Virus record (IMG/VR): IMGVR_UViG_3300026549_000054
Location: 32,001 to 96,000 of that record
Source: a virus
Lineage: Duplodnaviria; Caudoviricetes
Strand: one strand, 5' to 3'
Length of the DNA: 64,000 bases
Each line of letters begins with the position of its first letter. Within the stretch, counting starts at the first letter, position 1. The notes below the pieces were generated by a model that had not been told where the DNA came from, did not search any database, and saw only the letters and a list, made by a program, of their open reading frames with translations. The translations under genes were made by a program, and so were the position numbers. Shown here piece after piece: positions 5,962 through 61,600 of this stretch.

Positions 5962-6354
5962 TCAAAAATCTTTACTCAACTTTTTCTCTTTGTCAGCTAG
6001 TTCTTCTTTCTTGTGTAACAGAATTGCTTTATCTATAATTGTCTTCTGCAAATCACACCAGTTTCTAAAATTTTCTAAACCTGAAAAACCTTTACAGTCA
6101 TTATTATATACAAATTCCGAAGATTCATTTGAAGTAAAACTTTCTTTTCCATTAGGAAATAAAGTATAAGAAATCGTATTAAACTTTATTCTATAACATT
6201 CATATAAAGTAACAAAAACTACCCTTGGGCTTGGTCTTCGTTTGCAAGGATTGTTTAATGAAAATGTTTTAAACTTTGGGTCTTTGTTTGTGTTATTAAA
6301 CCCAAATTCCCTTAAAATATCTTCTAGCTGTGGTTGTAATTCATTCCAATTCAT
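5962..6354 (-). CDS. DF-tail family small protein
   Basis: ends KEKKLSKDF*. Confidence 0.7.
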   Translation of the reverse strand: MNWNELQPQLEDILREFGFNNTNKDPKFKTFSLNNPCKRRPSPRVVFVTLYECYRIKFNTISYTLFPNGKESFTSNESSEFVYNNDCKGFSGLENFRNWCDLQKTIIDKAILLHKKEELADKEKKLSKDF

Positions 6355-6371
6355 ACAACAAATATAATAAG

Positions 6372-6400
6372 AAATCCCACTTTGTGTGGGATTTTTTATT
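6372..6400 (-). terminator. intrinsic terminator
   Basis: aaatcccac-tttgt-gtgggattt hairpin with A/T tracts. Confidence 0.6.
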
Positions 6401-6411
6401 TTTTGAAACTG

Positions 6412-6678
6412 CTAGAAGTCTTCTTTCATTTTATTAAGTTTGATTCTTTCTTTTAATTTGTTCGCATACAAATTGAAAATTCCTTCTGTCATATTTGCTA
6501 TAATGTTTCTGGGAATTACAATTCGGTCATTCAATGAGGCTAGTTCTTGATAACTATAACCAGCATTTATTTTGTCATCGTGTTCGTCATAATAGAGAAC
6601 AAACTTATCTTTTTCGCTAATTCTCCCATTCAAAATGCTAAAGACTTTTACTGCTTGCTCATAAGGTATTACATTCAT
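6412..6678 (-). CDS. DF-tail family small protein
   Basis: ends KLNKMKEDF*. Confidence 0.7.
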   Translation of the reverse strand: MNVIPYEQAVKVFSILNGRISEKDKFVLYYDEHDDKINAGYSYQELASLNDRIVIPRNIIANMTEGIFNLYANKLKERIKLNKMKEDF

Positions 6679-6983
6679 TAAAAATCTTCCTGAACATTGT
6701 GTAGTCTAATCATCATCTTAATTTCATTTACCAAGTGGAAATACTTAAATTCTGTAAAGTTCTTAAAATCTTTGTTTGAAATCGTGATAAAGATACAACC
6801 ATCTTCCAGGTTCTTCTTTACATTCCGCTTCAAATTCATACCACCAGTAATTTCGTTGGTAACCGGACGATACACAATAGTAAGTACATTCTTCTTGAAA
6901 TCGGCACTCTTTGTATTTTCTGTAAGAATTTTATTTACATTCTTAAAGGAGTTAATCTTGAGGTTGTTGAGAGAAATGAGCAT
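6678..6983 (-). CDS. DF-tail family small protein
   Basis: ends RLHNVQEDF*; TAATG coupling. Confidence 0.7.
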   Translation of the reverse strand: MLISLNNLKINSFKNVNKILTENTKSADFKKNVLTIVYRPVTNEITGGMNLKRNVKKNLEDGCIFITISNKDFKNFTEFKYFHLVNEIKMMIRLHNVQEDF

Positions 6984-7399
6984 TAGAAGTCCTCCGCCAT
7001 AGATTTGAATTTTGTTACCTGTTTTGTGAGTGTTTCAGCCCTGATGGCTGCTTTAGCATTGTTCGCTAAAATTTCTTTGATTTGGGAAATCGTCAAGCGT
7101 TCCTTAGTTAAATCGTAAACCTTGACACCATACTTATTTTCAAAATTTTTACAATTTTCAACTGTAACTTCTTCACTGAGAAGTGCGGAAAAATCATAGA
7201 GAGTAGCTTCGTATTTGCTGTACATAAAAATTATTTTGTTTGCCAAGAAGCTATTTTCCGACCACTTGTAAGACCAAACGCGGTTAATAATTTCATCAGT
7301 AGAATAATCTACATTCGTTTTTTCGTCAAAGAACGCGGCGTAAACTTTCATTTCGTTTAGAATCGCTGCGAAATTATATACACTGGGGAAGTTCTTCAT
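6983..7399 (-). CDS. DF-tail family small protein
   Basis: ends KFKSMAEDF*. Confidence 0.7.
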   Translation of the reverse strand: MKNFPSVYNFAAILNEMKVYAAFFDEKTNVDYSTDEIINRVWSYKWSENSFLANKIIFMYSKYEATLYDFSALLSEEVTVENCKNFENKYGVKVYDLTKERLTISQIKEILANNAKAAIRAETLTKQVTKFKSMAEDF

Positions 7400-7413
7400 A
7401 TTATTATATATCG

Positions 7414-7904: not shown

Positions 7905-8336
7905 TTAGTCAAAATCTTCGTTCAATTTGTAAGACCTTACTAACATATCCAGCTTTTTTAATGCCAAATCTCTGTTTTCAGCATTTTTTATTTCATTCCA
8001 AACAGGAACTATCTTTTTGAAATCGTCTAAAATTTTGTTTCTGTCAGGATGTAGAAAATCCGTCTGGTATTCAAATTCATTTTTTTTACAATCATTACAA
8101 CTGCTAACTTCTATCGGCATATCTACAGTTGGAAAATCAAAAATGTATTCTAGTTTGATAGAAAAACTATAATTTGCTATATCATATCGTTTTGTAGCAT
8201 TTATTATTAACCTGATGTTATTCTGTTTAGAATAATCAGAAATAAATTCATAAAATGCAGTTTTGTGCTTTTCTAGCATTTTAGAAGCTACATTATCAAA
8301 TTCGTTATAATCTTTATCTAGTTTGTCAATAATCAT
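7905..8336 (-). CDS. DF-tail family small protein
   Basis: ends RSYKLNEDFD*. Confidence 0.65.
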   Translation of the reverse strand: MIIDKLDKDYNEFDNVASKMLEKHKTAFYEFISDYSKQNNIRLIINATKRYDIANYSFSIKLEYIFDFPTVDMPIEVSSCNDCKKNEFEYQTDFLHPDRNKILDDFKKIVPVWNEIKNAENRDLALKKLDMLVRSYKLNEDFD

Positions 8337-20182: not shown

Positions 20183-20509
20183 TTATTCCTCAAAATCTTT
20201 GGCAATTTTATCTAATCTTTTTTGATTATCTTTTGCTTTATATATAAGCGAACATCCTTCGCTGACTAATTCGCTAGTTAAACAATACAAATCATCAAAT
20301 TTTGTTCTAAATAATTTTCCACCTTCATAATCTTTTCTAATTATTATGTTATCATAATTGAGTATCTTTACAGAAATTTTAACTGCATCTGGACACTGGT
20401 AATAACCAAATTCATTCCAGTCATCTTTCTTAAAATCAAATTTATTCGCAATCCAACCGATGTTATAAAATGTCATCAGTAGTTCACTCAAATTGTATTT
20501 TCTATTCAT
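20183..20509 (-). CDS. DF-tail family small protein
   Basis: ends RLDKIAKDFEE*. Confidence 0.65.
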   Translation of the reverse strand: MNRKYNLSELLMTFYNIGWIANKFDFKKDDWNEFGYYQCPDAVKISVKILNYDNIIIRKDYEGGKLFRTKFDDLYCLTSELVSEGCSLIYKAKDNQKRLDKIAKDFEE

Positions 20510-22559: not shown

Positions 22560-23111
22560 CTAAAAATCATTGTTTATATTTATAATTTTGGTTATCTGAT
22601 TTTGGATTTTAGTTTTTGTTTCTTTACGAAGTTGCTTAATTTCTTCTTCTTTCCTGTTAATTAAAGCCATCGTTTTCAATAAATTTTTAACTTCAGGTTT
22701 CTTATAAAATTCTACAACTTCTTTATATGTTGTTTCCATTTCAGTTAATTTGTTATCCAAATCTTCTAAACTATTTACTGGTTTCCAATCCCACTGAATA
22801 TCTTGGAAATCCTGAATTTCTTGAAGTTTAGGTGGCATACAGATGTCTTTGATAAAACCATCACTTATCCTTAGAACTGAAAAATCATTTGGAACATTTA
22901 CTACTTTCTTCGCAAAAGCCAAATTCTTAAACTTAGAAAACTTCACATATTCATCATCGCCATAATTAGCCTGAAAATTGTACATATCTCCCTTATACTT
23001 CTTATCCAAAATTTGTATGAATTTCGTATAATTAACCTGTACATTATGTTTGGCAAGTATTTCGTCTACTTGCTTACACATATCCCAATCAAATTTAATT
23101 ACATTTATCAT
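22560..23111 (-). CDS. DF-tail family protein (array A)
   Basis: ends KIININNDF*. Confidence 0.7.
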   Translation of the reverse strand: MINVIKFDWDMCKQVDEILAKHNVQVNYTKFIQILDKKYKGDMYNFQANYGDDEYVKFSKFKNLAFAKKVVNVPNDFSVLRISDGFIKDICMPPKLQEIQDFQDIQWDWKPVNSLEDLDNKLTEMETTYKEVVEFYKKPEVKNLLKTMALINRKEEEIKQLRKETKTKIQNQITKIININNDF

Positions 23112-23413
23112 TTGAAGTCCTCCTTTAATTTTTCAGTTCGTTTTTGTTCTTTAATTTGTTTGAACCATAAAGATTTTCTATCAAAAAATGCTCTTAATTT
23201 ATCTTCTTTATTAAACAGTGTAAAACCATCTATATTAGCTGTGTCATCTTTTTCAGGAATAAAATGGTAATCTTCCCCATAAGGATTTGAAATATAATCA
23301 AAATATCCAATTCGTTCACCCATAAAATAAACACCACTGGAAATTGAAATCTTCAGTGAATAATCACCAAATACTTTAAACAGTTCCTTCATCGTCATCA
23401 GTAAAATCCTCAT
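23108..23413 (-). CDS. DF-tail family protein (array A)
   Basis: ends RTEKLKEDFK*. Confidence 0.65.
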   Translation of the reverse strand: MRILLMTMKELFKVFGDYSLKISISSGVYFMGERIGYFDYISNPYGEDYHFIPEKDDTANIDGFTLFNKEDKLRAFFDRKSLWFKQIKEQKRTEKLKEDFK

Positions 23414-23720
23414 TCAGTTCTCTTATTTTCAATTCCTGTTTGTATTTCTTATATACAAGGTCAAATTCCATAAATTTTAATCTGCAAAATTCGTAACAAT
23501 CACCATTAGTTCCGAAAATCAAAGTATAAACTAAACCATTCTTGTCTATACCAGTTAAATATGAATTTAAATCATAAGTTCCATTAGTACACCTGAAATC
23601 AAATACATCTGGAACATTATGGTTTATAATTGGCATTGACAAAGTAATAGAATTTGTATACTTGTTTTTTAACAAATTAAATTCTTCTGCCAATTTAATT
23701 ATATCATCATAGTTAATCAA
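23376..23720 (-). CDS. DF-tail family protein (array A)
   Basis: KIRELNEDF followed by a short extension. Confidence 0.65.
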   Translation of the reverse strand: MINYDDIIKLAEEFNLLKNKYTNSITLSMPIINHNVPDVFDFRCTNGTYDLNSYLTGIDKNGLVYTLIFGTNGDCYEFCRLKFMEFDLVYKKYKQELKIRELNEDFTDDDEGTV

Positions 23721-23976
23721 AGTCGCTCTCCATTTTCCCGAGTTTCTTCCAAAGTAGTCTTTGCTTTAATTCTAACATTTTATCGTTTAAATACTCTTTT
23801 AAACTTTCTTCTTTTGTTGTTGCTATTACACCCTTATCAGTATACAAAAATGTTTTCTGTCCACTTGAAGAAAAATCGCAAATACAATAATCACCTGACA
23901 TGGCTTGATAAAATATATCTTTCTTTACTTTCAAACCATATTCTTCACATATTCGTAAAAATGATGGTAGTGTCAT
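23713..23976 (-). CDS. DF-tail family protein (array A)
   Basis: ends KLGKMESDFD*. Confidence 0.7.
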   Translation of the reverse strand: MTLPSFLRICEEYGLKVKKDIFYQAMSGDYCICDFSSSGQKTFLYTDKGVIATTKEESLKEYLNDKMLELKQRLLWKKLGKMESDFD

Positions 23977-24365
23977 TCAAAGTCCTTCTTCATACTCACA
24001 ATTCGTTTGTTCGCACCAAACTGTTTCTTGTAAAGAGAAAACTGACTATATGTTTCAATCAGATTCTTACAATGTTTCCTTAGTTCTTTAAGACTCCAAA
24101 TTTCTTCTGCTTCATCATCACCACCCCACATAATTTTCAAATTATTACTGTGGCTGTTATATTCTAATTTCATACAAGTTCGGCAAAAGGCATAATCGTC
24201 TGATGGGTCATATAAGAACACAGGACAATAGTAACCATCTTCGTCCTTGATTTTCGTGCCAGGAAAAGTTGCTACATAACAATCGTGTGATTTATCAAAT
24301 TTATAACTCAGCTTAAGTTCTGTGGCTAATTTTTTAAGACTGTCTTTGTTAATTTCATCGTTCAT
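23973..24365 (-). CDS. DF-tail family protein (array A)
   Basis: ends RIVSMKKDFE*. Confidence 0.7.
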   Translation of the reverse strand: MNDEINKDSLKKLATELKLSYKFDKSHDCYVATFPGTKIKDEDGYYCPVFLYDPSDDYAFCRTCMKLEYNSHSNNLKIMWGGDDEAEEIWSLKELRKHCKNLIETYSQFSLYKKQFGANKRIVSMKKDFE

Positions 24366-24631
24366 TCAAAGTCTCTCTCCATTTTTAAAATCTTTCTTTC
24401 TAATTCTTGTTGTTTCAAATATATCAAAATTTCATTTAACCATTCTCTACAGGCACTTTCCGTACTTGTAGCATAATAATATCCGTCCTCATCCAACACA
24501 TAAATTAAACCAGTACTCAATAAGTACATTACAACTCTACCGCGATAACAAGCAATAGGGTCACCATTAATCGGGTCCATTCTCAATTCAAATCCATATT
24601 CCTCAACAAGTTTATTAAATACTTTTTTCAT
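24362..24631 (-). CDS. DF-tail family protein (array A)
   Basis: ends KILKMERDFE*. Confidence 0.7.
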   Translation of the reverse strand: MKKVFNKLVEEYGFELRMDPINGDPIACYRGRVVMYLLSTGLIYVLDEDGYYYATSTESACREWLNEILIYLKQQELERKILKMERDFE

Positions 24632-24900
24632 TTGAAATCACTCTCCAATGCCTGTTCCTTAAAATGTACTTTCCACTTCTTAATTATTGGAATATATGCT
24701 TTAACACATTCTTCAGCAAATTTTATATCTTCTGTTTGTTCATACATTCTGGTTTTAGTGTTATACACAATCAAACCGTTAAATCCAGCTTCAATAACAT
24801 AATAATTACAGTATTTTCCTAATGTTTCTTGTCTTCTGTGTTCTATTACTAAGCCAAATTTAGCACTTAATTCGTGTACTGTCTGTTCCCATTTAGTCAA
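24628..24900 (-). CDS. DF-tail family protein (array A)
   Basis: ends KEQALESDFK*. Confidence 0.7.
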   Translation of the reverse strand: MTKWEQTVHELSAKFGLVIEHRRQETLGKYCNYYVIEAGFNGLIVYNTKTRMYEQTEDIKFAEECVKAYIPIIKKWKVHFKEQALESDFK

Positions 24901-25141
24901 AATCTTGCCCCAGTTGATATAGTCTTTTTTCGTTCTTTTCTGCTTTAATTTTCCTTAGACATTCACCAATCCGTAATCTTGCTTCTTCTTTAGTTCCAAC
25001 AAACTTTTTCATTAAACGATTAGTTCGGATATAAATTGTGTTATACATTAGGGACATCACGTATGTATCGTCATAAGTGGCATATTTTATTACACCATCT
25101 TCAACTGTCAATCCAAATTCACTAACCAATTCTTCAAACAA
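24893..25141 (-). CDS. DF-tail family protein (array A)
   Basis: ends RLYQLGQDFD*. Confidence 0.7.
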   Translation of the reverse strand: MFEELVSEFGLTVEDGVIKYATYDDTYVMSLMYNTIYIRTNRLMKKFVGTKEEARLRIGECLRKIKAEKNEKRLYQLGQDFD

Positions 25142-25412
25142 AATCTGCCTCCATTTTTCTCAATCTTTCTTTCCCAAGTTCTTTCTTAAATTCCAACTCC
25201 GCCCTAGCAATATAAGCTAAACACTTTTCTAATTTATCCACTGCATCATCCAAATTATCTGCGTATTGAAATCCAAAATCCGAACCTAACCAAATACTTA
25301 AACTATTTGTTCCAGGAAAATATAACATAACTGCATAGCCTAAATAACGAGCCACATTATTCTCTACTTCAAACTTGTGTTCATTACTTAGTTTTTCAAA
25401 AATTTCTTTCAT
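25134..25412 (-). CDS. DF-tail family protein (array A)
   Basis: ends RLRKMEADFV*. Confidence 0.7.
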   Translation of the reverse strand: MKEIFEKLSNEHKFEVENNVARYLGYAVMLYFPGTNSLSIWLGSDFGFQYADNLDDAVDKLEKCLAYIARAELEFKKELGKERLRKMEADFV

Positions 25413-25678
25413 TAGAAATCCTTCGCAATCTTCTTCAGTTTAATTTCTAATTCTTCTTTTTTAGTTTCTATAATAGTGTTTTTCAAAATTACTTCTATAT
25501 CAGATTTTAAATCCATATAATTACTAAAATTATGACCCATCCATACTGAAACTTTACCATCGGAATTATCATACATCAATACAACTAAATCCTTATAAAT
25601 GCAGTAAATGTAATTTTCCTGTCTCTCGGCTTTCAATCCATAAGATATAACAAGTTCATTAAGTTCATTATTAGTCAT
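25412..25678 (-). CDS. DF-tail family protein (array A)
   Basis: MTNNELNELV...KLKKIAKDF*; start moved to the ATG after GGAG. Confidence 0.65.
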   Translation of the reverse strand: MTNNELNELVISYGLKAERQENYIYCIYKDLVVLMYDNSDGKVSVWMGHNFSNYMDLKSDIEVILKNTIIETKKEELEIKLKKIAKDF

Positions 25679-25689
25679 AACTGACATTT

Positions 25690-26210
25690 CTCCATAGAAA
25701 ATTAAAAATTTTATAAGCGCAGATTTTTTTCTAACACCCATTTTCCTATAATATAGAAACTTTCCTATAACTTAGCAATATACAGAAAACACATTTTTTC
25801 CATAGAATACTTCATTTTTATAAGTGCTGATTTTTTTATTTTGCCCATATAGAGCGAAAAAGAGAACTGTTGCCTTAGCAACCCTAATTGGGTATTTTTC
25901 AGTACTTCTAGACCGAATTTTTGTATCAGATTTTTTTCAGATGCCACCCAGATTAAGAAACTGACGACTGATTTTTGATAGAGCTTTGGTTCGCCACCAT
26001 TCGCCCATACACCCCCTATATGCCCTTAATACAAATTTTCAGACCCATCTGACATCCATCCTGCGAAAAATATGCCCAAAAACGGGCATTTTTGGGTCAT
26101 TTTTGGGGTCTAGGAAATGACATATTTAGGGTCCCATTTTGGGTTGTATTTTATGACATACGCACTTTCGGCAGTTCAACTGGGTCAGCTCGGGACTGTC
26201 AGTAGGACCT
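25690..26210. other. non-coding A/T-tract element at a local GC-skew switch (origin- or terminus-like)
   Basis: no credible ORF; repeated GATTTTTTT tracts, CCCCCTATA, TTTTGGG repeats; C-rich left flank and G-rich right flank. Confidence 0.4.
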
Positions 26211-26537
26211 TTAGAAGTCGGACTGGAGGCGGTCTTGTCGGCGTTGAATCTCAAATTCTTTCAGTTCCTTGACCAGACGATTGAACTTCAAACACATTAA
26301 CTTGAAAAGTTTAGGGCTAAATTGAGAGACTGAGAACAAAAAGATATGTTGATTATCTCTATCAATGTTAGCGGGCATATATAGGGAATCTTTAATTATA
26401 TTATATTCTAGGATAAAAAAACCTTGAACATATTTAGAAGGTATGATGGCATTGATAATATATTGGGTTTGAAGGTTAATAGTAAGGTTATATTCCTTAC
26501 ATAGTGAATAGAATAGTTCTTTATTTGAAATCTTCAT
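26211..26537 (-). CDS. DF-tail family protein (array A)
   Basis: MKISNKELF...RQDRLQSDF*. Confidence 0.65.
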   Translation of the reverse strand: MKISNKELFYSLCKEYNLTINLQTQYIINAIIPSKYVQGFFILEYNIIKDSLYMPANIDRDNQHIFLFSVSQFSPKLFKLMCLKFNRLVKELKEFEIQRRQDRLQSDF

Positions 26538-26838
26538 TTGCTTTTTCAATTCGTTTCCTCTCAATAATACCTTTAAGGAATAAAACGGCTTCATTTATAA
26601 TAGGGATGGCCTTATCAACAGACTTAGTATCTGTATGGAAGAATTCGGGAGAACCCCAACGAAGTATATGAATTTTATTAGTAACTTGGAATACAGGTTT
26701 ACCTTTATAGAAACCTGTATAGGTATGTTCATAATTATATAATGGACGAACTGTGTCTTTAACTTCTGTAACATAGGGACGCAGTTTATCAACTACTTCT
26801 TCTGCATTGAAGGTATAATTTAATTTAGAAGTCCGCAT
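26521..26838 (-). CDS. DF-tail family protein (array A)
   Basis: ends RIEKANEDFK*. Confidence 0.65.
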   Translation of the reverse strand: MRTSKLNYTFNAEEVVDKLRPYVTEVKDTVRPLYNYEHTYTGFYKGKPVFQVTNKIHILRWGSPEFFHTDTKSVDKAIPIINEAVLFLKGIIERKRIEKANEDFK

Positions 26839-27139
26839 TTATTTGTGTTATCCTCAATAGGTTATCAAATTCTTTTATATTTCTCAAAGTGGTAGATAAG
26901 GCTTTTAGGGCGGGCTTTTCGGATTTATAAGTCTTTGTAGTCCAATCGGCCCATACCTTAAGTTTACCTTCACTATCATATTTTTTATGGTTATTGATGA
27001 TATGAATGGTTATATCTTTATCTGCCTTATTATAATAAAACAGATAGTAATTAGGGTCCTTATATCTACCTTCAATAGAATAATTTGTTTCATTAACAAT
27101 AGGTACTAAAGCTTTAAATTTATCTACATTAGCAATCAT
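26825..27139 (-). CDS. DF-tail family protein (array A)
   Basis: ends RITQINADF*. Confidence 0.65.
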   Translation of the reverse strand: MIANVDKFKALVPIVNETNYSIEGRYKDPNYYLFYYNKADKDITIHIINNHKKYDSEGKLKVWADWTTKTYKSEKPALKALSTTLRNIKEFDNLLRITQINADF

Positions 27140-27449
27140 CTTGAATTCTCTTAAGTTTTTCGTGATAACCAGGAAATTTAAGTTCTAGGAAAGTATCTTT
27201 GATTTTAGGTAATAAACGGCGGACATCAAAGAAGTTCTTACAGACTTCAAAATCCCATTCAAGTTCATTAAAGTCTTTTATATAATTAACACCCATAATA
27301 TGTTCACCGAAATAAGTAAACATTGTATAATTATAGTTACTGATTGAATGATTCAAGTGCCCGATTATCCAGCCACCTTGGGTTTTAAATTCCATATAAG
27401 GACTAAGTAAATCTTTTACTTTCTTCCATTCAAGTTCTTTAAAAGTCAT
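27129..27449 (-). CDS. DF-tail family variant (array A)
   Basis: ends KLKRIQDDC*. Confidence 0.6.
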   Translation of the reverse strand: MTFKELEWKKVKDLLSPYMEFKTQGGWIIGHLNHSISNYNYTMFTYFGEHIMGVNYIKDFNELEWDFEVCKNFFDVRRLLPKIKDTFLELKFPGYHEKLKRIQDDC

Positions 27450-27798
27450 CTTTAATCTTCTTCAATCGTTTAGATTCTAAGTGTCTTTTATAGTTTCGTT
27501 CAAATCGGGATAGTTTAGCGAGAAGATAATCTAACTTTCTGTAAGCTTCTTCTATGGTTGTATACTTACCCCAACCAATACAGGCTATATCGGAATCACC
27601 CGGAGTGTATTCAAAGTCATTTACAATTAAGAAGTTATTATGGTCATCAATCTTAACTGTGTAACCATAGAACTCTAGGCCTGACGGGAAATTATAACAA
27701 TTCCAACCATCAATCTTACTCAATGAATACTTTAGAACACAAGCATTCAACAGCTCTTGTGCAGTAAGTGTGTCCTTAGCCATAGTTAGTATCTCCAT
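27439..27798 (-). CDS. DF-tail family protein (array A)
   Basis: ends RLKKIKDDF*. Confidence 0.7.
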   Translation of the reverse strand: MEILTMAKDTLTAQELLNACVLKYSLSKIDGWNCYNFPSGLEFYGYTVKIDDHNNFLIVNDFEYTPGDSDIACIGWGKYTTIEEAYRKLDYLLAKLSRFERNYKRHLESKRLKKIKDDF

Positions 27799-35496: not shown

Positions 35497-35871
35497 CTAA
35501 AAATCTTTCTTAATTTTGGCTAATTTCGCTCTTTCCGCTAATGTTTTTATCCTTAATGCCATTTTTTGAAACTTTTTATCAACCTTTTCGGGTGTAATTT
35601 CGTTATACATTTCATCGTCTGCCCAATCTACTGTTACTTCATCCGCAGTCGCAATCCCATCTTTAGTAATATAAAATTTAGAATAGAACTGAATTTCTTC
35701 TAATTTTGGCTTATATTCGTCAAAGTCTAGAACTGCCAATACATTCCTGCTATCTGTATTATTCGTTAATGAGGACTTTGAATACACATACAGACATCTT
35801 TTATCTTTAGTTAGTTCTTCACAGAAAAGTCCATTCTTTTCCAGGATAGGTAGTAATTCTTCATAAGTCAT
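35497..35871 (-). CDS. DF-tail family protein
   Basis: ends KLAKIKKDF*. Confidence 0.7.
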   Translation of the reverse strand: MTYEELLPILEKNGLFCEELTKDKRCLYVYSKSSLTNNTDSRNVLAVLDFDEYKPKLEEIQFYSKFYITKDGIATADEVTVDWADDEMYNEITPEKVDKKFQKMALRIKTLAERAKLAKIKKDF

Positions 35872-42407: not shown

Positions 42408-42923
42408 TTAGAAATCTTGACCCATTCGTACTTTTCTGTATAATTCTTTACTTAGCTTTTCCCATTTGTACATAAAGGCATCAATCTTGTCCTTATGAGT
42501 ATGAGTATCTGCTTTACTCTTAATTGGCAGTTTACGATAATCGTCAATGAGTTCCTTGGCGGCTTTTAGATTTTCTACATTATATGTTTCAAAACGAATA
42601 CTGCCACCTAATGCTGGAACCCAATGTCCGAAATTTACCACATAATTAGGTTTATTATCGTGTACTTTACCAGGTCCCCAAAACGCAAATTCTCTATAAG
42701 AAGATGAAGGTTCTTGTTGTATCATACATATAGGTATCAGACGAGCCACTTTAACTTCCAGTGAAATCGGGAGTGTATGATTTATAAGGTTGTTATGAAC
42801 TACTTCATCTCCCCACAAGAAATTACTTTCCCAACCTTTCAAGATGAAAATGTCGGAGTCATTAACTGTATACTGTGTAAGAATGTTAATTACATCTTTA
42901 CAAGCAGATAATGCAGGTTTCAT
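42408..42923 (-). CDS. DF-tail family protein
   Basis: ends RKVRMGQDF*. Confidence 0.7.
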   Translation of the reverse strand: MKPALSACKDVINILTQYTVNDSDIFILKGWESNFLWGDEVVHNNLINHTLPISLEVKVARLIPICMIQQEPSSSYREFAFWGPGKVHDNKPNYVVNFGHWVPALGGSIRFETYNVENLKAAKELIDDYRKLPIKSKADTHTHKDKIDAFMYKWEKLSKELYRKVRMGQDF

Positions 42924-50879: not shown

Positions 50880-50885
50880 ATTTAG

Positions 50886-50959: not shown

Positions 50960-50965
50960 ATATAG

Positions 50966-51040: not shown

Positions 51041-51052
51041 ATAATTTGTTAG

Positions 51053-51125: not shown

Positions 51126-51129
51126 ATAG

Positions 51130-51203
51130 TGGATACATACGGGATTCGGACCCGTGACCTCTTCAGTGCTAATGAAGCGCTCTTCCAACTGAGCTAATGA
51201 CCC
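51130..51203 (-). tRNA. tRNA-Ala(AGC), A34
   Basis: CTTCA-TTAGCAC-TGAAG; G3:U70. Confidence 0.85.
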
Positions 51204-51212
51204 AAAAGTTTA

Positions 51213-51287
51213 TGGACACATAAGGGATTTGAACCCTTGACATCCTGCGTGCAAGGCAGGCGTTCTACCAAACTGAACTAATGGCCC
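51213..51287 (-). tRNA. tRNA-Ala(TGC)
   Basis: CCTGC-CTTGCAC-GCAGG; G3:U70. Confidence 0.9.
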
Positions 51288-51294
51288 GTTTTCG

Positions 51295-51366
51295 TAGTAC
51301 ATTCGGGAGTCGGACCCGAGTTTCCGCCTTGAAAGGGCAGCGAACTAACCACTATTCTAATGTACC
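51295..51366 (-). tRNA. tRNA-Glu(TTC)
   Basis: CTGCC-CTTTCAA-GGCGG. Confidence 0.88.
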
Positions 51367-51373
51367 ATATTCG

Positions 51374-51447
51374 TAGTGCTATCCGGATTTGAACCGGAGT
51401 TTTAAGAGTGAAATTCTTATGTCCTAACCAAACTAGACGATAGCACC
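51374..51447 (-). tRNA. tRNA-Glu(TTC)
   Basis: TAAGA-ATTTCAC-TCTTA. Confidence 0.88.
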
Positions 51448-51819: not shown

Positions 51820-52287
51820 TTATTTAAAGTCTTTTGCAAATTTAGCTTCTTTGATATACTCCTGCATAAGTTTTGAGGCTTCGCTTACTTCCATCCATTT
51901 GCCAAATTTAGTAACCAACTTCTGTAACTGTTCAAAAGTCAAATTCTTACATTTTGATTCAAATTCACTCTGTATATTCCACCAATCGGGAACATTCTTT
52001 GTTCCGGTACTGGAGTAGGCAGGCGTGTAATAAAAACTGTATCTAGTATTATTCTTAACTGTTCCAATTTTTATACTTGCGTCATATCCATATCCATTGT
52101 AACCAGATGAAAAAGTGATTTTACATTCAATTCTCGGTTTGCTTTGTAGATTGCCTATAATGTCAAAGCAATCAAACTGCCCACCGAATTTTAATGTTGC
52201 TAGTTTATCAACTGCTACTTTAATGTTTTCAGCATTAGTAATAGCTGTGTTGCATAAATGTTTTATTCTTTCTTCTGCGTAACTCAT
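51820..52287 (-). CDS. DF-tail family protein
   Basis: ends KEAKFAKDFK*. Confidence 0.7.
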   Translation of the reverse strand: MSYAEERIKHLCNTAITNAENIKVAVDKLATLKFGGQFDCFDIIGNLQSKPRIECKITFSSGYNGYGYDASIKIGTVKNNTRYSFYYTPAYSSTGTKNVPDWWNIQSEFESKCKNLTFEQLQKLVTKFGKWMEVSEASKLMQEYIKEAKFAKDFK

Positions 52288-53870: not shown

Positions 53871-53960
53871 AAGAAAAAAGGTGGTTTTCCCATTTAGTTG
53901 AGAAAACCACCCTCAACCACCAATAAGGAAATTTGGGCATTATACCCAAAACGAATTAGA

Positions 53961-55166
53961 TTACTTAAATTCGTTCTGGATACGGACAATGCTAGTATAG
54001 AGAGCGTTCAGTGCGTTCACTTCCATACCATTTTCGTCCTTGACGCGGATTGGGCAGCTCTTACCGACCAACTTCGTCCACTTCTGCTTCTTTTCACGTG
54101 CCGTTTCCACAGCGTTCGTGTACACTTCCACCTGGATTTCCTTGGCGAGATGGGTGAGGAAGTAGTAGTAGTTAGTTGCGTACTTCTTGCCGAGTTCGGT
54201 CGGAGAATCAGGAGTTCCCATCTTGGATTCCTGTTCGTGGAGATACTGGCACACAGACTGTCCGAGCTGTACCGCCTCAATCTTGGACTTCTTGCAGAGC
54301 TTTTCTACCTTGGAGCCAAATTCCTTTTCAAAGTCCTTGGACTCCATAAGAGCCTTAGCATCCATACCGGTACCATGCTGAGCATAGTAGGTCTTGAACT
54401 TGGCCGCTATAGCCTGACCAACATAACCGGCGCAGGATTCCTGGAGAATACCGAGACCCTTGTTGCCTTCAAACAAACCCTTTTCTGTTGCCATATCAAG
54501 GAAGTTTGCGAAATGAACCCAGGTACGGCGGGATGGGAGAATACCATCAAAGCTCTTACCGGCCGTCTTGCTAGCCTGGGCGTTGGAGTATGGGTCAAGG
54601 TCACCGGAGTACTGGGAGATATAACCCGTGACAACGCGGTTCACACCTGCTTCAGTTGCCCAGTCAAGCCATTCCTGGACAGTCGGAGTGAAATTGTACA
54701 CAACGAAACGGTCCATCTTTGCCGGGTCAAATTCTTCAACGTCATAATTGCCGTCGTCACCCGGATTGATAGCACAAATGACGTGAGAGCCAGGAGCAAG
54801 CTTGAAGTTCAAAATCTTGTGGTCAAGGCCCAGCTGCATCATAGCATTCGTTACGAGAGTAGTACCACGGTTGATTTCATCCAGGAACAAAGTCACTGGG
54901 AGCGGGTTGCCGTGTTCGTCCTTCTTATACCAATATGGCGGAACGAATTCGGTTTCACCAGTTTCGGAATTGATGCGAGGAAGACCAATAAGGTCACCGA
55001 CATCGGAAATCTGGGAGGCCTGGAATTCAATACAGTCCTGGTGCCAAACATTCTTTGCAAGCCAGCGAATGACTTCGGTCTTACCGATACCGTGCGGACC
55101 CTTCAACATCACGGTGTGAGAGTTAGGAGTTGCTGCGAGAACCATCTTGAGAGTCTGAATATCCAT
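53961..55166 (-). CDS. MoxR-type AAA+ ATPase
   Basis: GPHGIGKT, LFLDEINRG, DPAKMDRF and PSRRTW motifs. Confidence 0.9.
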   Translation of the reverse strand: MDIQTLKMVLAATPNSHTVMLKGPHGIGKTEVIRWLAKNVWHQDCIEFQASQISDVGDLIGLPRINSETGETEFVPPYWYKKDEHGNPLPVTLFLDEINRGTTLVTNAMMQLGLDHKILNFKLAPGSHVICAINPGDDGNYDVEEFDPAKMDRFVVYNFTPTVQEWLDWATEAGVNRVVTGYISQYSGDLDPYSNAQASKTAGKSFDGILPSRRTWVHFANFLDMATEKGLFEGNKGLGILQESCAGYVGQAIAAKFKTYYAQHGTGMDAKALMESKDFEKEFGSKVEKLCKKSKIEAVQLGQSVCQYLHEQESKMGTPDSPTELGKKYATNYYYFLTHLAKEIQVEVYTNAVETAREKKQKWTKLVGKSCPIRVKDENGMEVNALNALYTSIVRIQNEFK

Positions 55167-55229
55167 AATTTATCTTTTTCCTTTTTGTTTTATGGTGATT
55201 GTTTCAGTTAGTTAAAAATTACAAGTTAA

Positions 55230-55286: not shown

Positions 55287-55664
55287 TTAGAAATCTTCCA
55301 TCAACGCAGCGAGACGTTTCTTTTGGAAATGAGCCTTGTATTCCTTACACAGTTCACCCAAATGTTCACACAACATTTCATCTGTGTAGGTCCACGCCGG
55401 AACACATCCATTGAAGACGAAATCCTTATTCCCCAGGCTATCCTGCATATCTTCTACAGTTTCCAAACACGCATAAACGCATTCATCAATCATAGACAGA
55501 ATGTAGCCTGAATTGTTCAGGAAACTTTCTTCATTCACATAAGCCATGACCGGTTCGTGTTTCATCCGTTCCGGATCATTCATAATCGCCTGCGAGTTCT
55601 GGTCCACATAAAGACCCAGGAGCATTACAATCTTATTAAAGCGTTCAATACCTTCTGTTACCAT
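55287..55664 (-). CDS. DF-tail family protein (array B)
   Basis: ends RLAALMEDF*. Confidence 0.7.
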   Translation of the reverse strand: MVTEGIERFNKIVMLLGLYVDQNSQAIMNDPERMKHEPVMAYVNEESFLNNSGYILSMIDECVYACLETVEDMQDSLGNKDFVFNGCVPAWTYTDEMLCEHLGELCKEYKAHFQKKRLAALMEDF

Positions 55665-56188: not shown

Positions 56189-56398
56189 TTAAAAATCGTT
56201 TGCTATGTTTGCTTGTTTACAGAAACTTTGTTTGTACTTCTTTTTTATATCTTTGATTTCGCCATTTATCCTTTCCAGGTCCGCTATTCTTTGTTTGTAC
56301 TGATTCGTCCAATTTCGCAAATCCTGAGAATTTTGTAATGATTTACATACCTTCAAATAAGTTAATAGTTCTGTATAAGCTTTTTCTAAGTCTTCCAC
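56189..56398 (-). CDS. DF-tail family protein (array B)
   Basis: ends KQANIANDF*. Confidence 0.65.
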   Translation of the reverse strand: MEDLEKAYTELLTYLKVCKSLQNSQDLRNWTNQYKQRIADLERINGEIKDIKKKYKQSFCKQANIANDF

Positions 56399-56813: not shown

Positions 56814-57191
56814 CTAAAAATCGCTTTGAATACGATTAAGTTTCATTTCATACTTCTTCTGCTTGATTTCTTTTTCCAATTCTAACCACTTTAAATGCAT
56901 TTGTCCGACTTTGTAAATTAAGGTATTATCATCGCATAATTCCATCTTAAAAGTGGTATTTTCCCATATAAGTTCATAACTTTCTAATTCACCATTCTTA
57001 TCCCTATGTTCTAACCAATGCCATTCGTACTTTTCACGAACATTCAATAAACACCTATTCATCCCATAACTTACTACCCACTGCGTACCTTCCCCAAATC
57101 GCAGATATCGCATACCACTTCTATCCTTGGTTTCTACCATATTGAACTTTTCTTTCAATAGGTCCATTACCTCATCCTGCGACATTATCAT
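56814..57191 (-). CDS. DF-tail family protein (array B)
   Basis: ends KLNRIQSDF*. Confidence 0.7.
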   Translation of the reverse strand: MIMSQDEVMDLLKEKFNMVETKDRSGMRYLRFGEGTQWVVSYGMNRCLLNVREKYEWHWLEHRDKNGELESYELIWENTTFKMELCDDNTLIYKVGQMHLKWLELEKEIKQKKYEMKLNRIQSDF

Positions 57192-57725: not shown

Positions 57726-58088
57726 TTAAAAATCTTCCTTCATCTTATCTAATTTCTGCTGTTCTTTCAGCTTTTTGCTCTTTTCTATATCCTTCTTAAA
57801 ATGCTCAATAACCTGCTCCATATTCCATAAATCACACCTATATTCATTTTTCTTTTCCTTCCCACCTATCCTCGCTATATAATAAAAACTCTTCGTATCT
57901 GTATGATAATATAACCTTATAAAAGTATCGTTCATTTCCCATTCATTACTAAATAATGGCAAATCCCCATAATATACCATTTCATAGAAAAAATCATCAT
58001 CTGGATGATGCTTCAATATAGGGCACTTTTCTAGTAATTCACTGATTACTTCGTCTTTTGTGTATCGCTTTAGTATCTTCATAACCAT
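57726..58088 (-). CDS. DF-tail family protein (array B)
   Basis: ends KLDKMKEDF*. Confidence 0.7.
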   Translation of the reverse strand: MVMKILKRYTKDEVISELLEKCPILKHHPDDDFFYEMVYYGDLPLFSNEWEMNDTFIRLYYHTDTKSFYYIARIGGKEKKNEYRCDLWNMEQVIEHFKKDIEKSKKLKEQQKLDKMKEDF

Positions 58089-58266: not shown

Positions 58267-58680
58267 TTAGAAGTCATCCTTTATCTTTTTTAGTTTAATA
58301 AATTCTTTCATTCTTTTAATTTCTTTTAAAGTAAACCCACATAAATCTTCTATATCTTTAGGGGTAGGGGATAAATTCATTTGGTAATCATCGTACCTAG
58401 CAATTAGTTTATTATCTTTATCCATACAAGCTATACCTGTATAACCATAATAAGGTAAATCGTGAATATAATCTAAATGATGTGGATAAAGTAATCTATC
58501 GTTATCATATAATATAAGAACACATTGGCCTTCGTCTTTAAAATAATACTGAGCATGAAGATAAATTGAATAATTAGAAGGATGGTCAATAATAGCTTCT
58601 TTAGGAAAGTAATGATATAGGGCTTCTTTTACTCTATAATAGTTTTTAATTTGAGTTCTTTTGGTATTAGATTTAGTCAT
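58267..58680 (-). CDS. DF-tail family protein (array B)
   Basis: ends KLKKIKDDF*. Confidence 0.7.
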   Translation of the reverse strand: MTKSNTKRTQIKNYYRVKEALYHYFPKEAIIDHPSNYSIYLHAQYYFKDEGQCVLILYDNDRLLYPHHLDYIHDLPYYGYTGIACMDKDNKLIARYDDYQMNLSPTPKDIEDLCGFTLKEIKRMKEFIKLKKIKDDF

Positions 58681-59035
58681 TGAAGTCCTCGGAAAGGTTA
58701 GATAAGCGTTTATTTTGTATAGATTCTTTGTATCGTTTAAATGCGTGTATATACTTAGTTTTGAGTTGATTTAGTTTAGTTTTTGCTTCTTCAACAGAAA
58801 AGATAACATCAGCAGAGAAGTAGCACCATTCAAACTTATTAGGTGTTTGGAAAACGTATATATCGTGAGCAACATACCAAGCAGTAGAATCGTGCCAGAT
58901 TAGATGAGAATTATAATCTTTATTGGATTGGGTTATATCCACGAAAGCATATTCTAAAATGTTCGGAGTATTGACTTTCACATATAGGCCGAGTTCTTTC
59001 ATTACAGAAGGTGGAAGTTCATTGAAAGGTAGCAT
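58673..59035 (-). CDS. DF-tail family protein (array B)
   Basis: ends RLSNLSEDFND*. Confidence 0.7.
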   Translation of the reverse strand: MLPFNELPPSVMKELGLYVKVNTPNILEYAFVDITQSNKDYNSHLIWHDSTAWYVAHDIYVFQTPNKFEWCYFSADVIFSVEEAKTKLNQLKTKYIHAFKRYKESIQNKRLSNLSEDFND

Positions 59036-59036: not shown

Positions 59037-59360
59037 TTAGAAGTCCTTTTCTAAATTAGATAGTTTCTTTTCTACTTTATATCGTTTATAGAGAGAGATA
59101 GCTGCATTATATTCTTTTTGCATCTGAATGAAGTACTGTTCATAATCTTCAGGATAGATTCTATTCCAACCGGCATACTCTATACAGGTTTCTGTCGCAA
59201 AGATATCGGTTGCAGCAAAGACATTATAAGGAGCAATCTTACTAAATGCGAACAAATTACCCACAATAGGATAGTGGCAGGGGTTTTTGAAAATATAATA
59301 GTTCTTAACAGGGAGCTGTTCTAAATCGTATTCTCTAATATAATCTTCTAAAGTTTTCAT
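59037..59360 (-). CDS. DF-tail family protein (array B)
   Basis: ends KLSNLEKDF*. Confidence 0.7.
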   Translation of the reverse strand: MKTLEDYIREYDLEQLPVKNYYIFKNPCHYPIVGNLFAFSKIAPYNVFAATDIFATETCIEYAGWNRIYPEDYEQYFIQMQKEYNAAISLYKRYKVEKKLSNLEKDF

Positions 59361-59692
59361 TTAAAGTCCTCTTTTATTTTCTTTAGTTTGTTCTTAACTT
59401 TTGTTTCTTTTACATAGAGAACTGCGTCATCTATCTGTCTTTTAAGGTTGATAAGGTGCTGAACCATTGCGGCCTCTCTATTCATTGGTATCGCACCAAA
59501 GTAATACCACACAGATAGATTTTTAGAGACTTTAACCTTTTCTGCTATTTTCCAACCATCTTCTATTTCGCTATACCACATTAGATGTGTCTCAAGTACA
59601 GGATAATAACCTTTAAACCCATACTCATCTTGATTTGGGTCTCTCAGTTCTAAATCTAATAAATCTATCATTTCTTGAGGTAGAGGTTCCAT
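59357..59692 (-). CDS. DF-tail family protein (array B)
   Basis: ends KLKKIKEDFK*. Confidence 0.7.
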   Translation of the reverse strand: MEPLPQEMIDLLDLELRDPNQDEYGFKGYYPVLETHLMWYSEIEDGWKIAEKVKVSKNLSVWYYFGAIPMNREAAMVQHLINLKRQIDDAVLYVKETKVKNKLKKIKEDFK

Positions 59693-60060
59693 TAGAAATC
59701 CTGTTTTATTTTGAGTTCTCTTAATTTGTTTTGAATTTCTTTAATTCGTTTAAGATACTTATGGCATTCTTTTTTGAATTGAGAGAGAGAAGGCTTTTCA
59801 ATTTTACGAAAATTACCTATATCCATAGCAGTTTCATCTCTATCTTTCTCTTTAGGTCTTATCCAGCCATTACCCTCTAATTCTAGTTTGTATGGAATAA
59901 AGAGATACTCTTTATCATACTGTAAGATAGTATAACCACAACGAGGTCCAAAGATAACCTCACCATCTAAATCAAAATACCAACCGTGATGGTCTGAGAG
60001 AGCATCAGGTCGGAAAATTTCTTTAGCCGCATTAAAATAATCTTCATAAGTGTGTTTCAT
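59692..60060 (-). CDS. DF-tail family protein (array B)
   Basis: MKHTYEDY...RELKIKQDF*; start corrected. Confidence 0.65.
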   Translation of the reverse strand: MKHTYEDYFNAAKEIFRPDALSDHHGWYFDLDGEVIFGPRCGYTILQYDKEYLFIPYKLELEGNGWIRPKEKDRDETAMDIGNFRKIEKPSLSQFKKECHKYLKRIKEIQNKLRELKIKQDF

Positions 60061-60407
60061 ACAAAATCCCTTTGCATTTTCATAAGTTTTCTGTGTGCTA
60101 TTCTTTCTTTGCCTTCTTTTATTCTTTTCTTTATAGAGGTTCTCAAATGATAAAGATGATTTCTTACTTCGTTCTCTGTTTGAAAATTTATAGAGCCAGC
60201 ATAACCCCACCAATAATGAGTGTCATCATTGTTCATATAAATTTGCTTTGCCATTCCAAAACTGCCATTATCATAGAACCACAGCAAATGCCCAGACTCT
60301 GGGATAAAGTCACTAAATCCATATTCAAGTCGGTCAGTATCTGTATCATAGTCTATTTTGACTAAATTTAATTTGTCTATAAGAGATTGAGAGAGCTGTG
60401 CTTTCAT
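60057..60407 (-). CDS. DF-tail family protein (array B)
   Basis: ends KLMKMQRDFV*. Confidence 0.7.
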   Translation of the reverse strand: MKAQLSQSLIDKLNLVKIDYDTDTDRLEYGFSDFIPESGHLLWFYDNGSFGMAKQIYMNNDDTHYWWGYAGSINFQTENEVRNHLYHLRTSIKKRIKEGKERIAHRKLMKMQRDFV

Positions 60408-60823
60408 TTGAAGTCCTTTTTCATATTAGCAAGTTTCTTATTTACAAGTTTTTCTTTTTCACACTTCTTATAGAGTTGAAGGAGATTAAATTGAGCTTCT
60501 GCCCATTGAGAGAGAATTTGGAAATTGAATTTATCTGTATCTTCTACTTTATAACTAGCAGTGTTACAAGAGAAGGAGTGTTTCCCTGTCGGAAGGAAAG
60601 AATACACCATAGTATCATACTCAATAGAGAGATAGCCAGTTCTAACATTACCTGAGATATAGACTGAACTACTCTTATCACCAAAATTCAAACAAGAAAA
60701 ACAATAGAAATCGTCATTACAAGTACGCTTAAAAGAGGTACTGTAATCATAACCATATTGTGAGAGAGTATCTTTTATTTTGTTCAAAAAGTTACTGAGA
60801 TTAGTGTATTCGTTACGCTTCAT
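60404..60823 (-). CDS. DF-tail family protein (array B)
   Basis: ends KLANMKKDFK*. Confidence 0.7.
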   Translation of the reverse strand: MKRNEYTNLSNFLNKIKDTLSQYGYDYSTSFKRTCNDDFYCFSCLNFGDKSSSVYISGNVRTGYLSIEYDTMVYSFLPTGKHSFSCNTASYKVEDTDKFNFQILSQWAEAQFNLLQLYKKCEKEKLVNKKLANMKKDFK

Positions 60824-61200
60824 TCAAAATCTTCCTTCATTTTATTAAGTTTCAAGTATTCTTTCATTCGTAAAATTTCACTGGAAACTATATCACAGAT
60901 GCGATTATATTCCTTTTCTGTATTGAATTTAGCCACAGAGTAATCACGCAAATCCAGTACACGTTTCCCATCTTTAGACGGAGAAATTTTATTGTTTATT
61001 TTGTCATAATAGAGATTTTCCGCATAAAGTATGTTTTTGTTCTCTTTGACAATTAGAACATAGGGGCACAGATCATACGTGAAAATTCTACTACCGTCCA
61101 AAAATATACCTTTGGAACCTTCATTGATGTAAAGAAGTTTTTCAGGAAATCTTTTTAAAAGAACACCTTTAATCAGTTCAAACACTTGTTTTTCGGTCAT
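60820..61200 (-). CDS. DF-tail family protein (array B)
   Basis: ends KLNKMKEDFE*. Confidence 0.7.
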   Translation of the reverse strand: MTEKQVFELIKGVLLKRFPEKLLYINEGSKGIFLDGSRIFTYDLCPYVLIVKENKNILYAENLYYDKINNKISPSKDGKRVLDLRDYSVAKFNTEKEYNRICDIVSSEILRMKEYLKLNKMKEDFE

Positions 61201-61409
61201 TCAAAATCTTCCTGCATTTTTTCCAAACGCTGTTTCATTTTGTGTTTCTTCTTTTCAAGTGGAGTCATTTCCCTTTCGGCCTTGTCAATATACCATTCTC
61301 TAATTTCTTTGAAAATTAAATTGTGTGTATCACAGACATGCTGAGCATATTCTTCAGCGGTTCGCCTAGTTTGGAAAATCACATTGTCGCAACCATAAAG
61401 TTTTTCCAT
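61197..61409 (-). CDS. DF-tail family protein (array B)
   Basis: ends RLEKMQEDFE*. Confidence 0.65.
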   Translation of the reverse strand: MEKLYGCDNVIFQTRRTAEEYAQHVCDTHNLIFKEIREWYIDKAEREMTPLEKKKHKMKQRLEKMQEDFE

Positions 61410-61600
61410 TAGAAGTCCTCCTCCATTTTCTGTAAACAGTGGTCAATTTTATCTATCTTTCTGTCATATTCAGTTTGTTGTTTAGCCAATACAGCACTAC
61501 GAAGATTTGTTTTAGCAATAGTATCAGTAAGACCAGTCGCCTGAGCATATCGCTGAGCGGCTCTCTTTGATATAAATGTTCTGCGACTGATCCAACTCAT
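61409..61600 (-). CDS. DF-tail family protein (array B)
   Basis: ends CLQKMEEDF*. Confidence 0.65.
   Translation of the reverse strand: MSWISRRTFISKRAAQRYAQATGLTDTIAKTNLRSAVLAKQQTEYDRKIDKIDHCLQKMEEDF

Follow-up and report, generated by a model that had tools for sequence, protein, structure and literature searches.

A basic C-terminal helix ending in Asp-Phe is conserved across a hypervariable family of small proteins in a T4-like rumen jumbo phage

The stretch of DNA analyzed here (64,000 nucleotides, hereafter the window) spans bases 32001 to 96000 of the 104,766-bp virus contig IMGVR_UViG_3300026549_000054, whose completeness is 31% according to CheckV, and belongs to an uncultured T4-like jumbo phage that is widespread in the cattle rumen. 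More than one in three genes of the window encodes a small protein with a common C-terminal tail closing on Asp-Phe (DF). This tail is a 16-residue motif selected as protein rather than as DNA, its conserved residues lie on a single face of a predicted helix, and the bodies that carry it have no known domain and diverge past recognition. We give an even chance to the reading that the tail is a shared docking helix on a hypervariable lineage-specific family, plugging its members into one common partner.

The tail is strongly enriched. Among the 151 open reading frames (ORFs) of at least 55 amino acids (aa) on the contig, 34 end in DF, DFx or DFxx, compared with about 1.97 expected from the internal frequency of the DF dipeptide (binomial p 1.4e-31), and 33 of these 34 have a hydrophobic residue three positions before the Asp. 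A stop-to-stop scan of the window yielded 35 tail-bearing frames on the minus strand against zero on the plus strand, and recovered three genes absent from the ORF call (6678-6983, 56189-56398 and 60057-60407). Two further genes, 42408 and 61409 (members are named here by their lower coordinate in the window), were added as members although they deviate at positions -7/-6, counting from the Asp as position 0. The window thus holds 37 members, all on the minus strand, 36 ending in DF and one, 27129, in DC. A preliminary description of this DNA had proposed about 38 proteins with a common tail; the tail stands, and the count is corrected to 37. It had also suggested trying a profile of the tails across genomes. 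A hidden Markov model (HMM) trained solely on the tails of a related contig, G005, matched 24 of the 933 six-frame open frames of our contig at E<0.01; each of the 24 is a minus-strand frame whose match reaches the C terminus, and 23 lie inside the window. The plus-strand ORF 53898-55211 (..GDCFS), antisense to a MoxR gene, was rejected as a chance match, and the genes at 28919 (..IDDFYN), 17769 (..IDFDED) and 63668 (..QDCFGY) have DF-like ends and are not members.

Motif statistics were computed on 33 members of this contig and 110 of G005; this set of 143 excludes ORFs of at least 400 aa, the DC member and the member with a long extension. As I, M or L at -3, D at 0 and F at +1 belonged to the selection rule, the presence of Asp directly before a single Phe in all 143 is a consequence of how the set was picked. 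The tail had been described as nine residues long, and its extent proved larger: the motif covers 16 residues, K-x2-K-x3-[KR]-L-x-K-[IML]-x2-D-F, with conserved positions at -14, -11, -7, -6, -4, -3, 0 and +1. Lysine occupies -14 in 128 of the 143 members and K or R occupies -7 in 136, K is the commonest residue at both -11 and -4, and 78% have L, I, M, V or F at -6. The chain ends at the Phe in 83 members, while the other 60 add one or two residues, mostly E, K, D or ND, which stem from ATGA-type overlaps with the next gene.

Several features indicate that the tail is the end of a helix of about 30 residues with one conserved face. Proline and glycine together never exceed 3% at any position between -26 and -2, except for 7% at -21, and reach 8% at -1. 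On a helical wheel, the conserved tail positions all fall within one arc of about 160 degrees, in which a hydrophobic stripe (-10, -6, -3, +1) runs beside a basic ridge (-14, -11, -7, -4), with the Asp closing the face. This arrangement on one predicted face is consistent with the earlier proposal of a basic amphipathic helix acting as a docking surface. Further upstream, the hydrophobic positions between -29 and -12 follow another register, and this part of the helix would pack on the protein's own body. The tail has a mean net charge of +1.4, a mean hydrophobicity of -0.39 and a hydrophobic moment of 0.30 on the Eisenberg scale. Amphipathic membrane-targeting helices of the MinD or FtsA type have a positive mean hydrophobicity and a high hydrophobic moment; the values for the DF tail differ from this, and a transmembrane-like segment is found in 4 of the 143 members, so that membrane targeting was rejected.

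An AlphaFold2 (AF2) model of member 25412, built from a 49-sequence alignment, has a mean predicted local distance difference test score (pLDDT) of 75.7, with ten-residue blocks at 80 to 88 from residue 21 onward. It comprises a helix at 24-33, four strands and an unbroken helix at 79-108 that reaches the DF; the first 19 residues are probably not translated, because the orthologs start later. A fold search of the Protein Data Bank (PDB) with this model gave no match at E<=0.001. Its best rows were weak (template modeling score at most 0.46), with YjbR- and frataxin-like alpha+beta sandwiches among them.

Selection on the tail acts at the protein level, not at the DNA level. Codon use at the Asp, the Phe and two lysines equals that of the genome (GAT 19/GAC 16, TTT 19/TTC 15; Fisher p 0.10 to 0.47). 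Across 13 ortholog pairs from 4 genes, a comparison of tail with body, as the preliminary description had recommended, gave a proportion of synonymous differences (pS) of 0.39 and a nonsynonymous-to-synonymous ratio (pN/pS) of 0.27 for the tail versus 0.32 and 0.40 for the body; synonymous change in the tail is thus not reduced. In 104 of the 143 members a start codon lies within 12 nt of the Asp codon, at exactly +8 in 74 of them, whereas 32 lack a start within 25 nt; in the other 7 it lies 15 to 21 nt away. The motif is equally strong in the 32 uncoupled members: K at -14 is kept in 30 of 32 compared with 92 of 104 coupled members, and K/R at -7 in 32 of 32 compared with 98 of 104. Four members of the window lack a following gene, as noted earlier, with gene-free distances downstream of 42 nt (5962), 263 nt (26211), 689 nt (42408) and 178 nt (58267). 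Codon use, synonymous change and the uncoupled genes together argue that the Shine-Dalgarno (SD) sequence of the next gene is not the reason for the tail, in agreement with the earlier view. What is tied to the following gene at the nucleotide level is only the wobble base of codon -1: the triplet GGA spans codons -1/0 in 73 of 104 coupled genes versus 2 of 32 uncoupled ones (p 5e-11), and for 15 of the 17 genes that follow a DF gene the SD core sits inside the tail, overlaid on it through that wobble base.

Outside the tail, the members are hypervariable. The bodies measure 63 to 255 aa, and once the last 16 or more residues are cut off, 115 of 143 have no similar counterpart at E<1e-3. Iterative HMM searches seeded with eight bodies showed no growth, and profile-profile comparison with hhalign related 1 of 45 sub-cluster pairs. 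Known domains are lacking. Among 34 window members, Pfam gave nothing above cut-off, the sole match being ARMH3_C at 22.9 bits against a cut-off of 27, and PHROGs gave one weak match, to a family without annotated function; the 110 G005 members had no Pfam match at the curated level. Traces of kinship nevertheless persist between bodies that differ so widely. Eighteen pairs of bodies are similar; 15 of these are on the same contig, 9 of the 15 within 5 kb, mostly as direct neighbors. A helix-[YF]G[LFI] motif near the N terminus occurs in 37 of 143 members and stands at one fixed position in 15 of the 37; among other small ORFs it is found in 17 of 211, among shuffled sequences in 11 of 143. 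The neighboring similar pairs and the common N-terminal motif indicate that the family grew by tandem duplication followed by drift outside the tail. On sequence grounds, the bodies are not unrelated domains with an attached tag but, at least in part, one paralogous family. The "diverse effector repertoire" of the preliminary description therefore needs qualifying, the members being at least partly paralogs, and "effector" is unproven for proteins with no known domain. One 108-aa ORF at about 87198 in G005 carries an N-terminal helix-FGL motif but has ..EMFKRLEKFKRR at its end in place of the DF; possibly this is a member whose tail was lost.

The family extends to close relatives of the phage. 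DF genes, from 1 to 7 at each locus, are present at 12 of 16 topoisomerase loci of relatives (81 to 100% identity), and at the four without them hardly any sequence, or none, lies downstream of the gene; in the stretch that separates the two topoisomerase genes, close relatives have 3 to 7. The G005 contig (210,185 bp, 56% complete, genome estimate about 375 kb) has an end syntenic with the start of our contig at 58 to 62% protein identity, and 110 of its 391 ORFs are DF-tailed, occupying about 41.6 of 210 kb, or about a fifth of the DNA. In G010, whose sliding clamp is 90% identical, 17 of 138 ORFs have the tail, compared with 0 of 126 in G011, whose clamp is 55% identical and whose GC content is 42%. 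Roughly one in four to one in three genes of the phage carry the tail, and on the genomes compared here the family is confined to one sub-clade of rumen jumbo phages. In L148 and L149 (at about 11.8 to 13.4 kb; 55% clamp identity), five small ORFs past the neighbor of the clamp gene end in ..E[AS]xVLK, ..GLK or ..GLR; a second tail family in G011 was rejected, as 3 'LK' ends among 126 ORFs are too few.

Database searches returned the same picture. The motif closes 119 of the best 120 hits to the tail profile; all 120 are 72 to 175 aa long, and none has a Pfam domain or a longer fused form. The 45-position tail profile, which is too short for tracing the family, gave 4 hits at E<=0.001 against 1.84 billion representatives, 3 of them members and 1 an unrelated repeat protein. 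A homolog search with the full-length alignment A2 gave 27 hits, close relatives without exception. A scan with a degenerate DNA pattern gave 111 loci, of which 8 are real family loci and the others chance matches, and the ESM Atlas returned unnamed viral clusters at 0.88 to 0.89 and one named cluster at 0.76, all below lead level. Full-text literature searches found no published description of a DF-tail family, and a search by term in the main texts of two jumbo-phage surveys gave no hit for paralogs, gene families or C-terminal motifs.

Taken together, the DF-tail genes would represent a lineage-specific, massively expanded family of small, soluble and probably early proteins. In the modeled member, the body consists of an N-terminal helix and a small beta-sheet, closed off by the long C-terminal helix. 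The last 16 residues would present the conserved face as a helix-in-groove docking surface for one shared partner. The family has expanded through tandem duplication, after which all parts but the tail diverged fast, and in coupled genes codons -1/0 are additionally tuned as the SD core of the next gene. Early expression is probable from gene position and from promoter-like sites, with strong sigma-70-like promoters found upstream of clusters. Stem-loops lie around the TTGACA -35 hexamer of such promoters at 55967-55940 and 55265-55247 (-); we see in them a resemblance to promoter-early stem-loops as found in T4-type phages. Three studies have RNA libraries with contigs that match parts of 22560-27800, which documents presence in the libraries and is no proof of transcription; no meaning attaches to the parts that lack such contigs.

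A number of points weigh against the docking helix. The analysis turned up no partner protein. The helix is integral to the predicted fold, so that its conservation may be partly structural. The N-terminal motif is shared by 37 of the 143 members too, and common descent alone would explain a shared tail, although it does not explain why the tail alone stays fixed. Over its full 16 residues, the tail has a pN/pS just modestly lower than the body does, an estimate from 4 genes. The total of promoter-like sites, on which early expression rests together with position, is no higher than in shuffled controls. Finally, the single-sequence model of member 57726 shows the same order of elements at low confidence (pLDDT 56).

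In its boldest form, the docking idea makes the DF helix a universal handle, by which 100 to 150 interchangeable and quickly evolving heads, each directed at a different host or rival target, would be coupled to a single hub such as a protease, an unfoldase, a polymerase or a scaffold. We put this forward as a tentative and, on balance, unlikely extension. If true, the phage would possess a germline-encoded repertoire of adaptors for host takeover or counter-defense, renewed by tandem duplication.

Members might instead associate with each other without a separate hub, the terminal helices forming a short coiled coil in homo- or hetero-oligomers. The heptad-like spacing of charges (-14, -7, 0) and the hydrophobic residues at -10, -6, -3 and +1 agree with such an arrangement, a pairing of K(-14) with D(0) would be conceivable if the helices were antiparallel, and dozens of members are probably made simultaneously. 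However, the hydrophobic seam is only 3 to 4 residues long, position -13 is hydrophobic in 16% of members, and the near-invariant K/R at -7 would face itself in an antiparallel dimer, which makes self-association rather improbable.

It is also unlikely that the tail has no external function and is merely the most constrained structural element of one fast-evolving fold. The AF2 helix packs on the sheet as part of that fold, and the N-terminal motif shared by 37 members, together with tandem duplication, points to common descent. In contrast, the best-kept residues are charged (K, K/R and D) and located at the chain end, beyond the -29 to -12 register, whereas buried core positions keep their character only. 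Moreover, the same 16 residues occur on bodies of all sizes in the range given above, with or without the N-terminal motif.

Delivery to a protease or unfoldase, in which the tail would act as degron or adaptor tether either on the proteins themselves or on cargo bound by their bodies, appears doubtful. The tail is C-terminal, basic and hydrophobic at its end, as well as located on proteins that are probably early and perhaps need timed removal, and the phage contigs encode a MoxR/vWA-peptidase pair, M16 and M18 peptidases and a chaperonin. Degrons of the ssrA or ClpX C-motif type are recognized by their last residues along with the free carboxylate, but 60 of 143 DF tails run one or two residues past the Phe, and a free carboxylate at a fixed place is thus not required; a strict C-terminal degron fits the tail poorly. 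In addition, the tail is a structured helix rather than a floppy end, and its conservation reaches 15 residues inward, beyond the needs of known terminal degrons. In the window, a MoxR-like ATPase of 401 aa (53961-55166, -) adjoins a metallopeptidase-vWA protein of 471 aa (52356-53771, -), the latter with a run of GQ repeats. This machine had been named as a candidate receptor; according to a survey, such pairs are typical of T4-like jumbo phages in general, with a proposed role in virion assembly (PMC7824862), and we found no link to the tail.

The sliding clamp, another receptor proposed earlier, is a very doubtful partner. A C-terminal Asp-Phe with a hydrophobic residue three positions earlier loosely resembles the h-x-x-a-a pattern of PIP boxes, and T4 gp43, gp33 and gp55 share a hydrophobic-acidic C-terminal tail that binds the clamp and docks these proteins on one hub (PMC2988020). 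Like these epitopes, the DF tail is an extreme C-terminal motif with Asp-Phe on several otherwise unrelated phage proteins. However, the T4 epitopes are described there as hydrophobic and acidic, with a flexible, divergent linker and two adjacent aromatic or hydrophobic residues, on a few DNA-related proteins, whereas the DF tail, carried by more than 100 ORFans, forms a continuous basic helix and has just one Phe; it has neither the acidic composition nor the two closing aromatic or large hydrophobic residues nor the linker. The clade also appears to have clamp ligands of another kind. G005 encodes a clamp candidate (242 aa, phrog_223, E 1e-11), which a PF02916 search did not detect and for which PDB sequence searches gave no match, as well as a family B polymerase. 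The polymerase ends in ..SSGLDDFFV and a 117-aa gene adjoining the clamp gene in ..GSFEDFFV; three DNA methylases end in ..EFDEFFS, ..PLTEFFE and ..GLNDFFE, and a phosphoesterase in ..VWNEFFI. Such [DE]FF tails occur on 6 ORFs of G005 outside the family, compared with 0.66 expected, and are acidic, placed after G/S/P-rich linkers and endowed with two aromatic residues. Ends of the type ...[LF]x[DE]F[FY]x, which the polymerase, the three methylases and the 117-aa gene carry in G005 (L133:9434-9784, L133:1551-2078, L134:13937-14671, L134:16052-16747 and L134:16734-19490), are probably the clamp-binding tails of this clade. A 294-aa gene in the window (28919-29803, -) ends in the same style, ..EIDDFYN. 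As the DF tail differs from these tails in charge, number of Phe residues and helix continuity, clamp binding was rated low; besides, more than 100 competitors for the site of the polymerase would be costly. Complex prediction for the clamp candidate with a 40-residue DF tail scored 0.02 and 0.00 against a mark of 0.32; it was run without controls and counts neither way.

There is next to no chance that the tail is a nucleotide by-product, such as an SD site or spacing for an overlapping next gene or a recombination linker, since residues -14 to -3 are too far upstream for a ribosome site, and despite the frequent start codons and SD cores in coupled genes this reading is left standing only for positions -2 to 0 of those genes.

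The DF-tail family bears some likeness to known phage systems. In the hyperplastic regions of T4-like genomes, small early ORFans cluster between core genes and are shuffled by way of promoter-early stem-loops. DF genes are similarly small, tightly packed, located between core genes and variable in number among relatives, but in the T4-like phages known to date the ORFs of hyperplastic regions are mutually unrelated, whereas here nearly all share the 16-residue tail. The capsid-targeting sequence of the T4 internal proteins is likewise a short terminal peptide on diverse small phage proteins with one destination; it is N-terminal, removed by the prohead protease and present on few proteins, in contrast to a C-terminal, helical tail on roughly one gene in four to one in three. 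In Bacillus phage G, one small-protein family is also multiplied in a single jumbo phage: its zinc-ribbon family of about 35 copies is called 'unprecedented' in the survey (PMC7824862). With 110 members, the DF family has about three times more copies, no known domain and conservation of the tail alone.

The members of the window, all on the minus strand, are arranged in clusters and at single sites. The first cluster comprises 5962..6354 (130 aa, ..KEKKLSKDF), 6412..6678 (88 aa, ..KLNKMKEDF; HMM match), 6678..6983 (101 aa, ..RLHNVQEDF; ortholog in L001), 6983..7399 (138 aa, ..KFKSMAEDF; T at -14) and 7905..8336 (143 aa, ..SYKLNEDFD), followed by the single gene 20183..20509 (108 aa, ..RLDKIAKDFEE; HMM match). 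The block at 22560-27798 was located correctly in the preliminary description, which counted 15 consecutive genes; it contains 14 members, ten of them consecutive, with breaks at 25742-26210 and 26595-26824. The ten are 22560..23111 (183 aa, ..KIININNDF), 23108..23413 (about 96 to 101 aa, ..TEKLKEDFK), 23376..23720 (with a 10-residue extension past the DF, ..IRELNEDFTDDDEGTV), 23713..23976 (87 aa, ..KLGKMESDFD; N-terminal helix-YGL motif), 23973..24365 (130 aa, ..RIVSMKKDFE), 24362..24631 (89 aa, ..KILKMERDFE), 24628..24900 (90 aa, TTG start, ..KEQALESDFK), 24893..25141 (82 aa, TTG start, ..RLYQLGQDFD), 25134..25412 (92 aa, ..RLRKMEADFV) and the AF2-modeled 25412..25741 (..KLKKIAKDF), whose true start is probably near 25678 (88 aa); the second through sixth are HMM matches. 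The other four are 26211..26594 (127 aa, ..RQDRLQSDF), 26825..27139 (104 aa, ..RITQINADF), the DC member 27129..27449 (106 aa, ..KLKRIQDDC) and 27439..27798 (about 114 to 119 aa, ..RLKKIKDDF), all but the DC member matching the HMM.

Single genes follow at 35497..35871 (124 aa, ..KLAKIKKDF; HMM match), solitary beside a tRNA array, 42408..42923 (171 aa, ..RKVRMGQDF) and 51820..52287 (155 aa, ..KEAKFAKDFK). The last group begins with 55287..55664 (125 aa, ..RLAALMEDF), directly upstream of the MoxR-like gene, and a probable DF-tail gene at 56189..56398 (about 69 aa, start uncertain, ..KQANIANDF). From there, HMM matches are found at 56814..57191 (125 aa, ..KLNRIQSDF), 57726..58088 (120 aa, ..KLDKMKEDF; the single-sequence model), 58267..58680 (137 aa, ..KLKKIKDDF), 58673..59035 (120 aa, ..RLSNLSEDFND), 59037..59360 (107 aa, ..KLSNLEKDF), 59357..59692 (111 aa, ..KLKKIKEDFK), 59692..60060 (122 aa, start set from orthologs P0006/P0023, ..RELKIKQDF), 60057..60407 (116 aa, ..KLMKMQRDFV), 60404..60823 (139 aa, ..KLANMKKDFK), 60820..61200 (126 aa, ..KLNKMKEDFE) and 61197..61409 (70 aa, ..RLEKMQEDFE), and the group closes with 61409..61600 (63 aa, ..CLQKMEEDF; C at -7).

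The window has a GC content of 35%, and its minus strand carries nearly all genes. These include the T4-type topoisomerase II subunits, a CCA-adding enzyme, two TET-associated glycosyltransferase-like proteins and 31 transfer RNAs (tRNAs), and the contig outside the window encodes a tail sheath, a baseplate hub, a prohead protease and an anaerobic ribonucleotide reductase. Megablast and tblastn searches against cultured phages gave no match to the window DNA or to any DF protein, and the topoisomerase and tail sheath reach at most 28 to 36% identity; by this comparison there is no close cultured phage. Near-identical DNA (at least 0.91 of sampled words) is present in 4 bovine-gut runs from 3 studies beyond the possible source, and partial window DNA in 24 runs from 19 studies among the matches listed. 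Genome sizes in the clade are up to 372 to 389 kb.

The tRNA genes form two arrays (33908-41834 and 49226-51447, -), in which one gene call overlaps a tRNA-Pro and four endonuclease-like genes are interspersed (36258-36917, 40171-40917, 41059-41718 and 49663-50316); three of the four have DUF559 matches, two of them with a C2H2 zinc finger. Directly upstream of the second array, at 48907-49011 (-), is a full-length match to the Rfam orphan cow-rumen-2 RNA (RF02947; 105.6 bits, gathering score 66), which places this RNA motif in a T4-like jumbo phage. The large terminase appears to be split, with a 297-aa ATPase-type ORF at 13628-14521 (-) and a nuclease-type ORF of 344 aa at L019:3299-4330 (+), about 52 kb away on the opposite strand. 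The TET-associated glycosyltransferase-like genes (18345-20177 and 30877-31887, -), together with a radical SAM gene (2476-3582) and a GT2 gene (3575-4447), hint at DNA hypermodification. G005 encodes a GH10 xylanase-like gene (L134:4031-5809, -; E 3e-51), a chaperonin, Hsp20, an M18 aminopeptidase and NAD salvage genes.

Between one quarter and one third of the gene content of a phage of about 350 to 390 kb thus belongs to one undescribed family. Its tail is set apart from the [DE]FF motif of the clade, which marks the polymerase, three methylases and others as probable clamp clients, and it is short, portable and easily mutated. If the DF tail is a docking handle, its partner would give more than 100 'dark matter' genes a mode of action at once, and the family would represent a new way for large phages to organize host takeover.

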